A DNA stretch of 64,000 bases from Escherichia phage HMD-9: sequence record PV287714.1. One strand, given 5' to 3'. The notes beneath the pieces were generated by a model. It ran no database searches, had not been told where the DNA came from, and saw only the letters and a program-made list of their open reading frames with translations. Shown here piece after piece: positions 19,448-64,000 of the stretch. Position numbers and translations under genes: made by a program. Within the stretch, counting starts at the first letter, position 1, and each line of letters starts with the position of its first letter.

Positions 19448-19933
19448 TTATTCCATTTCTACTATATGCATGTTCTTTTTGCTATCAAAATATATGTTTT
19501 TAACTATTAACTCAGAATTAATTGGCAGTAAAAACTCTCTTTCATAATCTACCATACAAAGGTTATCATAAAGCTTGTTAAGCTTATCATCGTCAATTTG
19601 ACCAGATTCTTCAATTGCGATTAAATTTTCTAAAATGTCAATCATAGCAGTCGAATAGTCGAAAACGTTTGCATTTTTTAACACTACTAAAACATTAGTC
19701 ATATAGCGTTCTGCCGCAAACGTTTCAGCTATATGAGACTCACTGCTAAAGGAAGTTATTCTTTTAAATTTGATTCTCCTATTAACTTCAAACTTATAAG
19801 ATAGCACTTCCTCTATTGTAAGTCCTCTAAAAAGTGTGTCTTTAATCTCAAGTTTGTCTTTAATGTAATCATTAACACGCTTATGATTAAAATCATTAAT
19901 TTTGTTGCCAAGGCATTGCATTAAAATATGCAT
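19448..19933 (-). CDS. hypothetical protein
   Basis: ORF track 161 aa; flanked by its own promoter and terminator. Confidence 0.6.
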   Translation of the reverse strand: MHILMQCLGNKINDFNHKRVNDYIKDKLEIKDTLFRGLTIEEVLSYKFEVNRRIKFKRITSFSSESHIAETFAAERYMTNVLVVLKNANVFDYSTAMIDILENLIAIEESGQIDDDKLNKLYDNLCMVDYEREFLLPINSELIVKNIYFDSKKNMHIVEME

Positions 19934-24561: not shown

Positions 24562-25143
24562 CTAACCGAGCTTTTTAGTTAATTCATTCCAATGTTTTCT
24601 GCACAAAGAAACATAAATTTCATCACCAATACAGATTTGATTACCTTCTTTAACTGGTGTTCCATCTTCCATTAATCGAGCTGTCATAATAGCTTTTTTA
24701 CCACAATGACAAACTGCTTTTAGTTCAATAAGTTTATCTGCAATCGCCAAAAGTTCTTTAGAACCTTCAAATAATTTTCCAGCGAAATCAGTCCTTAGCC
24801 CATAAGCCATAACAGGAACATTATATGTATCAACAATTCGGCTTAATTGATGCACCTGTTCAGTTTTTAAAAACTGAGCTTCATCTACAAATACGCAATG
24901 AATATCTTTTTGTGCTTCAGCCCATTTATAGAACTCAAAAATATCCATATCATCCGTAATAATATTCGCTTCCTGTTTAATTCCAATGCGAGAAACGACT
25001 TCACAAACAGAATCGCGAGTATCAATAGCAGGTTTAAGAACTAATACACCCATTCCGCGTTCTTTATAATTATGCGCAGCAGTTAAAAGAGAAGCAGATT
25101 TTCCAGCATTCATTGCTGCATAAGTAAAAATTAAACTCGCCAT
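24562..25143 (-). CDS. tk: thymidine kinase
   Basis: 193 aa; P-loop AAMNAGKSA, zinc-binding CHCGKKA...C; matches recalled T4 Tk. Confidence 0.92.
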   Translation of the reverse strand: MASLIFTYAAMNAGKSASLLTAAHNYKERGMGVLVLKPAIDTRDSVCEVVSRIGIKQEANIITDDMDIFEFYKWAEAQKDIHCVFVDEAQFLKTEQVHQLSRIVDTYNVPVMAYGLRTDFAGKLFEGSKELLAIADKLIELKAVCHCGKKAIMTARLMEDGTPVKEGNQICIGDEIYVSLCRKHWNELTKKLG

Positions 25144-25152
25144 ATCACCTTC

Positions 25153-25338
25153 TTAAAGCGTATTCACATAAGCTATTAATTCGTTTTCTTTCTTATCAAA
25201 CCGGTTAGCAAATTCTTCTTGCTGTTCGGGAGATAGCGGGCCGTATTCATCATAAAAGGTGTTTGCTTCTGTATGCTCATCTAGAAGTTCATGGATAAGC
25301 TCAAACAATTTATCTTTTTGTTCTTTACTCAGACTCAT
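25153..25338 (-). CDS. hypothetical acidic protein
   Basis: ORF track 61 aa. Confidence 0.45.
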   Translation of the reverse strand: MSLSKEQKDKLFELIHELLDEHTEANTFYDEYGPLSPEQQEEFANRFDKKENELIAYVNTL

Positions 25339-25504
25339 ATATTAATTTCCAGGAGTTTTAAAATAATTCGCTTTTGCTTAAATATTTCCATAGTTAAATG
25401 GTCAGTATCTTTTTGACCGATTCCAATAGCAAAACCTTTATTAACAGCGAGTTCAATTAAATTATCAAGCTCACGTAACACTTCATATTGTAACTCAAAA
25501 CTAT

Positions 25505-25711
25505 TCATTTTGGTTTACCTTCTTTAACGAAATCGGGATAAGGATAAAATCCTGAATAAAATCCTTCACCTTTATGATTGATGCATCCTTTATTAGAACA
25601 ATAGCACCAATAGTCGAAATCACAAGCCATTTCATCATTACATAAAGCAAAAACAACCGGCCATTTACACTTTTCACAATGGGCATTTTTAAGAATACTA
25701 GTTTGGCTCAT
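25505..25711 (-). CDS. Cys-rich small protein (putative Zn-binding)
   Basis: ORF track frame 25505..25732; start at MSQTS (ATGA overlap); 9 Cys plus His in 68 aa. Confidence 0.45.
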   Translation of the reverse strand: MSQTSILKNAHCEKCKWPVVFALCNDEMACDFDYWCYCSNKGCINHKGEGFYSGFYPYPDFVKEGKPK

Positions 25712-25920
25712 AACCATGTAACCTTTAAGCAATATTCTTCTACATGTTGTTTACGACCTTTCCTATCAATAAAGGTATATTCAACGAATGTTCCAATATA
25801 GTCTTTATCTACATCATGAGGACTATTAATTGGGCATTTAGTACGGCAAATGCGTTCCCATTGACGAATAATTTCCACTTTGTTTTTAGGATCAAACGGA
25901 TGCGGGTAATGTACTTTCAT
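25708..25920 (-). CDS. hypothetical protein
   Basis: ORF track 70 aa. Confidence 0.45.
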   Translation of the reverse strand: MKVHYPHPFDPKNKVEIIRQWERICRTKCPINSPHDVDKDYIGTFVEYTFIDRKGRKQHVEEYCLKVTWL

Positions 25921-26371
25921 AATCCACCACTATTAAATCAATATCAGGAGTAAACATGTCGATTAATTTAGAAACCTTATCCCAATCACCGCCAGCAATA
26001 CCACAACCTATGCGTGGAATGTAAATTACTGGTTTAAACAAAAGGGTCTCTGCCTGTAGATTTAATTCTATCATGCAGTTTACTAAAGCACCATAATCAA
26101 GATTAGGACCCGGTTCGTATTGTGTATACAGGTTATAGCATATACCAAATCCTGTAGGATTATGTTTAAAAACAATAGACATATCGCCTAATTTATCACG
26201 AGAACCGTACTCGGTAGTGGTTTTATCTATTTCTAAAATTTTAGGATAGGCCCTTGCTAATTGACCCGCTACACCCGAACCCATAGTATGAAAACAGTTG
26301 CACCCGTGCGCAATAATATTACCTTGAAGAAATAGGGCGACAATATCGCCCTTGATATATTTTACAATCAT
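25892..26371 (-). CDS. macro-domain (ADP-ribose binding/hydrolase-like) protein
   Basis: 159 aa; GDIV...AHGCNC...MGSGVAGQL and IPRIGCGIAGGDW resemble macro-domain Gly-rich loops. Confidence 0.6.
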   Translation of the reverse strand: MIVKYIKGDIVALFLQGNIIAHGCNCFHTMGSGVAGQLARAYPKILEIDKTTTEYGSRDKLGDMSIVFKHNPTGFGICYNLYTQYEPGPNLDYGALVNCMIELNLQAETLLFKPVIYIPRIGCGIAGGDWDKVSKLIDMFTPDIDLIVVDYESTLPASV

Positions 26372-26709
26372 CTAGTACTCAATCCTCGATTATAAGAATC
26401 TACCAAACGGTCAACCATTGAATGACAAGCGGCTTTATCTTTCTCCTCCGCAACTGAACATTCTAAGGTATTCCACTTTTTAGCATATCGTTTTAATAAA
26501 GTATCATTCTTGTATCTACTTGATTTATCTCTTTCTCCGTCTTTATATGCATATATTAATTTCTGCGCAAATTCAGCTTGGCATGCTTTATTTTTTCCGC
26601 AATAATCCGCGGCAGTACGGTTTACATACTCTCTAATTTCAGTATATGATGTATCTGCTAACACAGAAAATGAAATTAATCCTATACATAAAACCAAAAT
26701 TTTAGTCAT
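26368..26709 (-). CDS. secreted/periplasmic Cys-containing protein
   Basis: 113 aa; N-terminal signal peptide MTKILVLCIGLISFSVLA. Confidence 0.5.
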   Translation of the reverse strand: MTKILVLCIGLISFSVLADTSYTEIREYVNRTAADYCGKNKACQAEFAQKLIYAYKDGERDKSSRYKNDTLLKRYAKKWNTLECSVAEEKDKAACHSMVDRLVDSYNRGLSTR

Positions 26710-27247
26710 TTACTATTTCCAAAAGTTTATTATTTTTAAGGTAATTAGCCTTTTCTAGGACTTCAGAAGCATATTTAGAACCTGCTTTAACATTCCATCC
26801 CGAATTATAAGAGGATATTGCTTTTCTTATATCGCCCTTATGTATATTTAACCAATAAGAAAGTTCAATGTACGCCCAGGAAGCTGAATTGGACCGTTTA
26901 TTCAACATTCTTTTTATTTCAGCATCGGTCATATTATAACCAAGTTCCTTAACTCTTGCACGCATGGTCGGCAAATAGTTTTGGAACATTCCGTAGGCAT
27001 GATGCTTTGGTTTAGATTTTAAATTAACTCCGGCAGAGCTTTCTTGCCATAAAATAGCAGCCATTATATGACCTAATCCGCTCTTGTGGATATTTTTATG
27101 TGTTTTATATTTTCCATCCTTGGAAAATTGTTCCCCGAATTGATACGCGTAACGCATGTTATCGAGTTGGACATTACTGAAAGTATGCTCGGAGCTATGT
27201 GCCATCATTGAAATGGCCAATAGACCAGCGAGTAGTGCTTTTCTCAT
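26702..27247 (-). CDS. secreted lytic-transglycosylase-like (SLT domain) protein
   Basis: 181 aa; signal peptide; LWQESSAG...AYGMFQ resembles the SLT catalytic-Glu motif. Confidence 0.55.
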   Translation of the reverse strand: MRKALLAGLLAISMMAHSSEHTFSNVQLDNMRYAYQFGEQFSKDGKYKTHKNIHKSGLGHIMAAILWQESSAGVNLKSKPKHHAYGMFQNYLPTMRARVKELGYNMTDAEIKRMLNKRSNSASWAYIELSYWLNIHKGDIRKAISSYNSGWNVKAGSKYASEVLEKANYLKNNKLLEIVND

Positions 27248-27254
27248 GCTTACC

Positions 27255-27716
27255 TCATTGAGTTTTAATTACTGCTTTAGAAGCCTTTCCTGGTAAACGA
27301 CGACTGTTGATAATTGCCATCCTACACTGAAGTGACGGGTCTTTGAACTTCGCATTAGGTTTACAAACTGTAAATCCAAGCCAAAGATTTCCATCTGTGA
27401 TTTCTAAACGCCCAGGACGATATTCAACCCCATCAATAAAATCTTCGTCAATATCAGGGCGTGGAGGCATACTCAGGAATTCATTAACTTCTAAAACATG
27501 GTCTTTTATTTTGTGGAATAATTCAAAAACATATGTCTCATCAATCTCCCGCTGAATTGCACGATCAAGAAGATGCTGAGAATATTTTAGATGAAACGAT
27601 GAGACTCCTGCTGCTTTTGATGCCTCACGAATCTCATTGTTAATTTGACGAAACTCCGACTCAAAGTGACGACGGAGCTTATTTCGACGGATAAAAACTT
27701 CTGTGTTGATAGTCAT
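27255..27716 (-). CDS. regB: sequence-specific endoribonuclease RegB
   Basis: 153 aa; MTINTEVFIRRNKLRRHFESEFRQINNEIREASKAAG matches recalled T4 RegB. Confidence 0.9.
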   Translation of the reverse strand: MTINTEVFIRRNKLRRHFESEFRQINNEIREASKAAGVSSFHLKYSQHLLDRAIQREIDETYVFELFHKIKDHVLEVNEFLSMPPRPDIDEDFIDGVEYRPGRLEITDGNLWLGFTVCKPNAKFKDPSLQCRMAIINSRRLPGKASKAVIKTQ

Positions 27717-27743: not shown

Positions 27744-27773
27744 ATTATACTACAGTCAAGAGGAAAAGTAAAC
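27744..27773 (-). promoter_or_regulatory. T4-type early promoter for regB (GTTTAC-N18-TATAAT)
   Basis: Reverse complement GTTTACttttcctcttgactgtagTATAAT. Confidence 0.6.
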
Positions 27774-27775
27774 AG

Positions 27776-28054
27776 TTATTCTTTAAATCTAATCAATTTA
27801 TTCATAGACTTTGTAACTTCTGCACGAACCTCATGTAGGTTTTTAAGCTGTTCAAGACGTTGCTCATAGTAAGCAATTTCATCTTCTTCGAGACAGTCCT
27901 GTGAATCTTCTTTAAGATAACGCGCATAGTCCTGGAAAGCTTTACGGACTACTTCCTGGAAGTCATCAAGACTTTGAATTTTCTTAGGAGCAACAGATAC
28001 ACGACGAGGGGCAGTATAATACTCATAACCAAACCCTGCGCTTAATTGAGCCAT
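27776..28054 (-). CDS. hypothetical protein
   Basis: ORF track frame 27776..28096; start at [10 protein letters not shown]. Confidence 0.45.
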
Positions 28055-28320
28055 TAATATTTTTCCTCTGGTTGGAACACAGCACGACAAGCCCACATAC
28101 TGGCTTCTTTGAGTTTCGTTTTAGCAATAGTTAACTGATCAAGACTTTCAGCATAATTCTTCGCGAATTCACAGTCTTCACAATTATCTAGTGCTTCCCA
28201 GAATTCATCATATAAAGCATCAAAGATAAGTCCTAAACGAACTTCAGCATCTTTGATAGCATTCACTTTACCGATTTTCTCTTCAGTATGTGGCTTATAA
28301 CCCTTAATATCTTCAATCAT
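28054..28320 (-). CDS. hypothetical protein
   Basis: ORF track 88 aa. Confidence 0.5.
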
Positions 28321-28534
28321 ATTTTACTTTCTCACCAGTACCCAAATCATATTCAACTAAACGAATAGGTTCATGAATGCCATATCCCTGAACAGAAATT
28401 TCTGTCGTAGGATAAATTCCACTAATATCACCCATATTCCACGCTTCATTAAATTGTTGTTCGCCTGAATTACTAAACCATTCGGCGAAAGCATTTAGCA
28501 CATCTTCAGAACCTTCAATAATTATCTTTGCCAT
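28313..28534 (-). CDS. hypothetical protein
   Basis: ORF track 73 aa. Confidence 0.5.
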   Translation of the reverse strand: MAKIIIEGSEDVLNAFAEWFSNSGEQQFNEAWNMGDISGIYPTTEISVQGYGIHEPIRLVEYDLGTGEKVKYD

Positions 28535-59508: not shown

Positions 59509-61210
<1,702 letters not shown>

Positions 61211-61251
61211 TAAATATTATAAACTAATTAAAGCCCAGATTAGGAGAAATC

Positions 61252-64000
<2,749 letters not shown>

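Follow-up and report, generated by a model that had tools for sequence, protein, structure and literature searches.

A stand-alone macrodomain protein encoded at the tk.4 (adfM) locus of Escherichia phage HMD-9

The stretch analyzed here, a window of 64,000 nucleotides (nt) from Escherichia phage HMD-9 (sequence record PV287714.1), contains between the thymidine kinase gene (tk) and regB an open reading frame (ORF) for a protein of 159 amino acids (aa). This ORF encodes a stand-alone macrodomain of the ALC1/TARG1-like class and is the positional orthologue of tk.4 of phage T4. The original prediction, made from the letters alone, had placed a macrodomain protein in the tk-regB interval; the location holds, but the ORF is read from the minus strand. 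The gene and its immediate surroundings are as follows.

25892..26371, minus strand: tk.4 (adfM) orthologue, an ATG-to-TGA ORF for a 159-aa single-domain macrodomain protein
26368..26709, minus strand: vs (valyl-tRNA synthetase modifier), the upstream neighbor, 96.5% identical to T4
25708..25920, minus strand: tk.3 (DUF7202), the downstream neighbor, 91% identical to T4
26368..26371, minus strand: ATGA, the start/stop overlap of vs with tk.4, read directly from the sequence
25892..25920, minus strand: 29-nt out-of-frame overlap of the 3' end of tk.4 with the start of tk.3

The assignment to the macro domain is based on the agreement of profile searches, structure prediction and fold comparison. 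The Pfam Macro profile (PF01661) was matched over positions 2-117 of its 118 with 33.1 bits (gathering cut-off 22) and an E-value of 5.8e-8, PHROG 335 was matched with an E-value of 1.6e-71, and 795 homologues were found in the protein collection at E <= 1e-3. As a single sequence, the protein matched the solved structures of BT1257 (1.6e-10), yeast Poa1p (1.5e-9), SCO6735 (8.5e-8), Mycobacterium tuberculosis DarG (4.8e-5) and human TARG1 (0.01); with a profile of 56 family sequences, the E-values became 8.9e-19 for BT1257, 1e-16 for TARG1, 2.9e-15 for SCO6735, 5e-14 for Poa1p and 1.6e-11 for DarG. The AlphaFold2 (AF2) model (predicted local distance difference test score, pLDDT, 94.4) has the three-layer alpha/beta/alpha macro fold, and its best Foldseek match is TARG1 (PDB 4J5S; E = 6.6e-10, template modeling (TM) score 0.72-0.82). 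The predicted macrodomain identity is thus borne out by the Pfam profile, the model and Foldseek, and the lack of any macro match, which had been named as the outcome that would speak against it, did not occur.

With vs on one side and tk.3 on the other in a Tequatrovirus backbone, the ORF is by position the orthologue of T4 tk.4 (60922..61389 of NC_000866; 155 aa, NP_049723), a gene that carries the RefSeq description "phosphatase; contains A1pp phosphatase motif". By BLASTP the two proteins are 58% identical over 155 aa (E = 1e-70). T4 Tk.4 shares with the protein of the window the vs/tk.3 slot, the ATGA coupling to vs and the single-domain build (155 versus 159 aa). A characterized T4 counterpart, which the original prediction did not name, therefore exists in the same slot and is now named adfM. 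The gene itself is already known: near-identical copies of it in GenBank are labeled "macro domain protein", "tk.4" or "phosphatase", a publication of 2006 already assigned tk.4 orthologues to A1pp/macro (PMC1524935), and the T4 orthologue has been characterized genetically as the anti-DarTG2 factor AdfM. What is reported for tk.4 of the window is accordingly an annotation and not a discovery.

As a defense against phages, the ADP-ribosylation of DNA by DarT toxins is widespread. DarT2 attaches ADP-ribose to single-stranded DNA at the second thymidine of TNTC motifs and so blocks replication, and the thymidine-ADP-ribose linkage is hydrolyzed by DarG, TARG1 and SCO6735 (PMC9411070). In a preprint of November 2025 describing HIDEN-SEQ, transposon mutants of T4 were propagated on Escherichia coli expressing DarTG2, and only tk.4 emerged as a significant hit; T4 became sensitive to DarTG2 on clean knockout of this gene, which the authors renamed adfM (anti-DarT factor Macrodomain; bioRxiv 10.1101/2025.11.20.689424). 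A role against host ADP-ribosylating toxins of the DarTG type, which had been proposed from the sequence together with a phage knockout challenged on DarTG hosts, is supported by this result, since for the T4 orthologue the knockout has been published with the predicted outcome (10.1101/2025.11.20.689424). As the second T4 factor of this kind, AdfN (T4 30.3) is a NADAR enzyme that handles the guanine marks of DarTG1 (PMC11825919), and each flavor of mark now seems to have its own eraser in T-even phages, namely AdfN for DarTG1 guanine and Tk.4/AdfM for DarTG2 thymidine.

The elements of the ADP-ribose pocket could be located in the protein at the following positions.

26339..26350, minus strand: G8-D9-I10-V11, the KGD motif at the end of strand beta-1, aligned with TARG1 YVKGDLF and BT1257 YIKGDAT
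within 26258..26308, minus strand: loop 1, which binds the distal ribose and phosphate, H22-G23-C24-N25-C26 with M30-G-S-G-V-A-G-Q-L38
26120..26134, minus strand: N80-L-Y-T-Q84, the motif at the catalytic position, placed by profile and MAFFT alignments
25982..26017, minus strand: loop 2, which binds the diphosphate, P119-R-I-G-C-G-I-A-G-G-D-W130

The three Gly-rich segments on which the original prediction was built, GDIV (8-11), MGSGVAGQL (30-38) and IGCGIAGG (121-128), are present in the order given there, and profile alignment to TARG1 and BT1257 identifies them as the three ADP-ribose-contacting elements of macro domains. In macro domains generally, the Asp of the KGD motif contacts adenine; within the Tk.4 family, at least 90% of members retain G8. 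Residues D9, N25, G31/G33 and G122/G124 align with the matching residues of TARG1 and BT1257; loop 2 aligns with PRIGCGLDRLQW in TARG1 and PRIGCGLAGGKW in BT1257 in the profile alignment, and in loop 1 H22 aligns with His23 of Poa1p and G23 with Val25 of SCO6735. When invariance was scored over 56 homologues reaching down to 38% identity, 14 positions were invariant (H22, G23, N25, C26, G33, A35, D49, N80, Y82, Q84, P119, G122, G124 and W130), most of which belong to the catalytic strand or to the two loops that bind ADP-ribose. This pattern argues for a conserved enzyme and not a mere binder. The allele of the window keeps every family-invariant pocket residue, and all 14 of the invariant residues, including Gln84, are also found in T4 Tk.4.

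Gln84 (NLYTQ) shares its column with Lys84 of TARG1 (LITK), Lys80 of DarG and the Lys of PhiKZ (FPTK), and its counterpart in BT1257 is likewise a Gln (NMIGQ), which corresponds to chain residue Q105 of SCO6735, the native Gln85. The BT1257 residue was read from the profile alignment, because an alignment of seven sequences by MAFFT misplaced BT1257 near the catalytic motif. In the SCO6735 structure AHVCND (with Val25) corresponds to AHGCNC (with the invariant Gly23) of the window protein, and in the profile alignment the column of TARG1 Asp125 is occupied by Ala126. Because an invariant Gln84, matching SCO6735 Gln85, stands where DarG and TARG1 carry a catalytic Lys, the Tk.4 family may therefore be regarded, as far as sequence can tell, as mechanistically SCO6735-like and not DarG-like, and as a candidate thymidine-ADP-ribose hydrolase. 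In SCO6735 the Q85A replacement abolishes all activity, and Gln85 is proposed to hold the distal ribose by its ring oxygen, with the backbone of Val25 positioning a water molecule (PMC9411070).

Taken with the T4 genetics, tk.4/adfM encodes an ALC1/TARG1-class macrodomain that probably strips DarT2-placed ADP-ribose from the thymidines of phage DNA. Tk.4 would be made early in infection from the regB-vs.1-vs-tk.4-tk.3 gene run and would act as an ADP-ribosylglycohydrolase on ADP-ribosylated thymidines of single-stranded phage DNA; the marks would have been set by host DarT2 at TNTC motifs, and their removal would restore replication. By analogy with what has been proposed for SCO6735, Gln84 probably positions the distal ribose in the manner of Gln85, and the backbone of loop 1 at the position of G23 probably holds the water, in the manner of Val25. 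The same activity may be expected of the 58%-identical allele in the window.

Several points weigh against this reading. The evidence on T4 tk.4 is genetic and comes from a preprint, whose wording on hydrolysis by Tk.4 is only "seems likely" (10.1101/2025.11.20.689424). The T4 allele is the tested one, whereas the allele of the window is known from its sequence and differs from it at 42% of positions, so that equal activity is assumed. The family also lacks the catalytic Lys of DarG and TARG1, Asp125 of TARG1, the DarT-binding domain of DarG, and the long, Lys-bearing mobile loop that is thought to bind DNA in SCO6735. Lastly, the HxCNC motif and His22 are common to the Appr-1''-p (ADP-ribose-1''-phosphate) phosphatase Poa1p, and a small-molecule substrate is compatible with the sequence.

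Among known macrodomains, the ALC1-like proteins SCO6735 of Streptomyces coelicolor and BT1257 of Bacteroides (PDB 5E3B and 2FG1) resemble the phage protein in having a Gln in the catalytic column and in standing alone without a toxin partner. However, identity to the phage protein is only about 26-29%, Gly23 stands where SCO6735 has Val25 (so that the Val/Ile of SCO6735-type proteins at this position is absent), and the phage "mobile loop" is about six residues shorter than that of SCO6735 and lacks Lys89 and Lys94; BT1257 has a six-residue insertion after the Gln. TARG1 (OARD1) shares with the phage protein the KGD motif, loop 1 and the PRIGCG of loop 2, and it can also reverse DarT damage (PMC9411070), whereas its Lys84/Asp125 dyad is replaced by Gln84/Ala126 in the phage protein. 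The DarG macrodomain of DarTG2 (PDB 5M3I, 5M31 and 7OMU) presumably has the same substrate, thymidine-linked ADP-ribose on single-stranded DNA. However, it is a weaker sequence match to the phage family than BT1257 or TARG1, and its Lys80 (Thermus aquaticus, FPTK motif) is replaced by Gln84 (LYTQ).

An identity as an orphan antitoxin of the DarG type was considered and rejected: the NCBIfam model of the DarG antitoxin (type II/IV toxin-antitoxin), NF048014, gave 27.8 bits against a cut-off of 250, over profile positions 2-142 of 338, and the 159-aa protein, consisting of the macro domain only, has neither the catalytic Lys nor a C-terminal DarT-binding domain. No darT gene adjoins tk.4, its neighbors being vs and tk.3. 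Similarly, the bacterial homologue P0096 (Pelagimonas) has no adjoining DarT gene and stands alone in a housekeeping neighborhood in the one genome examined, and the metagenomic homologue P0107 shares a phage-like contig with genes for UvsY and RNA ligase. The protein gp104 of phage PhiKZ (12518..13006), also called AdfM, is likewise a stand-alone phage macrodomain that counters DarTG2, with a biochemically shown hydrolase activity (Cell Rep 2026, PMC13309987) that strips ADP-ribose from the TNTC thymidine (PMC13309987). It was rejected as an orthologue of Tk.4, being of the DarG type with the FPTK Lys and an E-value of 9.4e-25 to M. tuberculosis DarG; to the Tk.4 family it is related at the profile level only (hhalign probability 95.9%, 20% identity). 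Judging from these alignments, the name AdfM covers two non-orthologous phage macrodomains, and the T4-type and PhiKZ-type AdfM would thus represent two independent recruitments from different branches of one macro class. Both the Gln-type class and the non-orthology to PhiKZ AdfM bear on the choice of catalytic mutants and on the "orphan antitoxin" account of origin.

The RefSeq label of T4 tk.4 raises the alternative that the protein is a metabolite enzyme, that is, a Poa1p-like ADP-ribose-1''-phosphate phosphatase or O-acetyl-ADP-ribose deacetylase that clears NAD-derived small molecules and takes no part in DNA repair. Poa1p (PDB 6LFQ), the source of the "Poa1p-like" and "phosphatase" annotations on phage homologues, has an HSCNC that aligns with the phage HGCNC, so that the HxCNC motif and the conserved His are found in both; H22 is invariant in the phage family, and the structure of a Poa1p H23A mutant is listed. 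At the sequence level, Poa1p aligns only over the N- and C-terminal thirds. However, the label itself derives from the naming of the domain (smart00506 A1pp) and not from an assay or phenotype, and DarTG2 sensitivity is the only phenotype known for the T4 orthologue. Besides, T4 RNA repair (Rnl1/Pnk chemistry) does not, to our knowledge, generate Appr-1''-p, and the two activities can coexist in this macro class, as they do in TARG1. We consider a purely metabolic role very improbable. It is very improbable, in our estimate, that DarT2 is neutralized mainly by binding of the toxin or of ADP-ribosylated DNA and not by hydrolysis, in spite of the finding that catalytically dead macrodomains of SCO6735 (Q85A), DarG (K80A) and TARG1 (K84A) still inhibit DarT in vitro (PMC9411070), and of the fast turnover of tk.4 alleles relative to their flanks, which would fit co-evolution with a protein partner. 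The invariance of the pocket residues in very distant homologues, including Gln84, Asn25 and both Gly loops, points to selection on catalysis, the DarT-binding C-terminal domain is missing, and the occurrence of homologues in phages of many unrelated hosts is hard to square with toxin-specific binding.

Highly improbable, finally, is that Tk.4 erases other kinds of ADP-ribosylation, either on RNA (the work of CmdT-type toxins, or at phosphate ends) or on Asp/Glu of proteins, perhaps tuning Alt, ModA, ModB or a ModA-like ORF. Enzymes of the TARG1 class do act on Glu/Asp-linked ADP-ribose and on phosphate-linked nucleic-acid ADP-ribose (PMC9411070; PMC11833690). On the other side, SCO6735 was scored inactive on 5'-phosphate ADP-ribose and on 2'-OH RNA ADP-ribose, although the Discussion of that paper is not fully consistent on the point (PMC11833690). 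An additional gene resembling those of ADP-ribosyltransferases (ARTs) lies about 6 kb away in this phage; T4, however, carries tk.4 without it, so that the two do not form an obligate pair. The ARTs of T4-type phages are Arg-specific R-S-E enzymes, and no macrodomain, ALC1-like ones included, is known to cleave Arg-linked ADP-ribose. Regulation of the phage's own ARTs, which had been raised as a second possible role, finds no support here, and removal of ADP-ribose from RNA, or of marks set by the phage itself, has no direct support.

The additional ART-like gene (19448..19933, minus strand) is a 161-aa ORF between the nrdC.10 and nrdC.11 homologues and matches PHROG 832, "RNA polymerase ADP-ribosylase" (E = 6.5e-24); no Pfam or NCBIfam match was found for it. 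It is named modA_2 in phage ECO07P1 and is lacking at this position in T4. By eye, R-S-ExE-like motifs (FRG, TSFSS and YEREF) can be recognized, and its features suggest an additional ADP-ribosyltransferase of the ModA type, some 6 kb away from tk.4.

The order regB, vs.1, vs, tk.4, tk.3 is common to the window and T4, the flanks are 91-99% identical between them, and several Tequatrovirus genomes match a 16-kb stretch surrounding tk.4 at about 96% identity. The gene tk.4 is the exception to this conservation, as the following amino acid identities to T4 and to the Dhakavirus JS98 indicate.

24562..25143: tk, 99.0% to T4, 69.4% to JS98
25708..25920, minus strand: tk.3, 91.4% to T4, 72.9% to JS98
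25892..26371, minus strand: tk.4, 56.6% to T4, 93.1% to JS98
26368..26709, minus strand: vs, 96.5% to T4, 45.8% to JS98
26702..27247: vs.1, 99.4% to T4, 67.4% to JS98
27255..27716: regB, 99.3% to T4, 57.5% to JS98
25921..26333, minus strand: swapped allele cassette, a divergent segment in which 17-38 nt of each 45-nt step agree with T4

Compared with T4, all 45 of 45 nt per step are identical through vs and the first approximately 40 nt of tk.4, and identity recovers in tk.3. The pattern of tk.4 thus runs opposite to that of all five other genes, and it recurs inside Dhakavirus, where the flanks of JS98 and phage FB are 85-100% identical, whereas tk.4 is only 77% identical. Given this incongruence between JS98 and T4 and its recurrence between JS98 and FB, tk.4 appears to have been exchanged between genera and to diverge faster than its neighbors, as would be expected of a counter-defense gene. 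In short, the gene is a hotspot of recombination, and at least two of its alleles, about 57% identical to each other, are common in Tequatroviruses. The type found in the window is at least as frequent in sequenced phages as the T4 type: the former was found in 312 phage records and the latter in 224 (at >= 90% identity). The family as a whole was recognized by tblastn in 2777 of 50,697 phage records, with hosts including Klebsiella, Pseudomonas, Vibrio, Acinetobacter and Campylobacter.

In loop 2, the allele of the window keeps the family consensus IAGG, whereas the validated T4 allele deviates from it with IGKG; the sequence gives no reason to doubt the activity of the window allele. The alleles might be tuned to DarT2 variants or to RNA- or protein-targeting ARTs. 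That tk.4 is an arms-race cassette whose alleles are functionally non-equivalent, being tuned to different toxins or linkages or evading host sensors or inhibitors of the macrodomain, is a doubtful extension that we put forward tentatively; it could account for the exchange between genera and for the fast divergence relative to the flanks. If it were true, the Gln-type family of phages would form a mechanistically distinct line of nucleic-acid de-ADP-ribosylases, with an origin separate from that of the DarG antitoxin.

A 13-nt indel relative to T4 gives the window protein a nine-residue tail that overlaps tk.3, and most of this tail (...YESTLPASV; 25892..25921 including the stop) is encoded in the overlap. 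Residues 151-159 are poorly ordered in the AF2 model (mean pLDDT 64 for the final block). The tk.4 of Dhakavirus JS98 likewise encodes 159 aa and overlaps tk.3 by 29 nt. At the other end, several public annotations begin tk.4 at an internal Met, giving products of 130 or 127 aa (phage WL-3, 4001..4393, and clusters P0002 and P0061). However, the ATG at 26371, which overlaps the vs stop codon, is supported as the start because the region alignable with TARG1, BT1257 and Poa1p already starts at residue 2-3 of the 159-aa protein. The ATGA overlap of the vs stop and the tk.4 start suggests translational coupling of the two genes.

No dedicated sigma-70-like promoter was recognized upstream of tk.4, the scan giving 12 sites against 14.4 expected from shuffled sequences, and no match to the MotA-box pattern was found between regB and tk.4. 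A promoter-like site lies upstream of regB (27772..27744), and tk.4 is most simply read within the overlapping vs.1-vs-tk.4-tk.3 run behind this site, as we infer from gene arrangement. Inside tk.4, a MotA-box/-10 middle-promoter pattern (TGCTTTAGTAAACTGCATGATAGAAT; 26065..26090, minus strand) is directed towards tk.3, and the T4 allele has CGCTT there; this individual site may be due to chance, because 16 matches were found over the window against 7.3 expected. Codons 7-13 of tk.4 contain a perfect 8-bp G+C-rich hairpin (AGGGCGAUAUUGUCGCCCU; 26334..26352, both strands) that was flagged as terminator-like. The 56-nt RNA bearing it has a folding energy of -14.3 kcal/mol (z = -2.7), the hairpin sequence lies within the stretch identical to T4, and a "terminator" is annotated under this gene in two GenBank records. 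The hairpin could attenuate read-through from vs or affect the initiation of translation.

The interval between tk.3 and tk, which holds tk.1 and tk.2 in T4, also differs from T4. In the window it contains three small ORFs (25153..25711, minus strand) that do not match the T4 tk.1/tk.2 arrangement: the product of one belongs to DUF7438/PHROG 653 and is 54% identical to T4 Tk.2, that of another belongs to PHROG 3452, and that of the third is a Cys-rich protein of 68 aa matching "Phage zinc binding domain" (PF23895, E = 2.3e-29). By its gene content, this interval is a putative second variable cassette adjoining tk.4. Further small mosaic patches of the early region are vs.5 and vs.3, with vs.4 and vs.6 being 100% and 95% identical to T4, respectively: the vs.5 homologue (28313..28534, minus strand) is only 34% identical to T4 Vs.5, and the vs.3 ORF as listed (27776..28096, minus strand) encodes 106 aa from a GTG start, versus 92 aa in T4.

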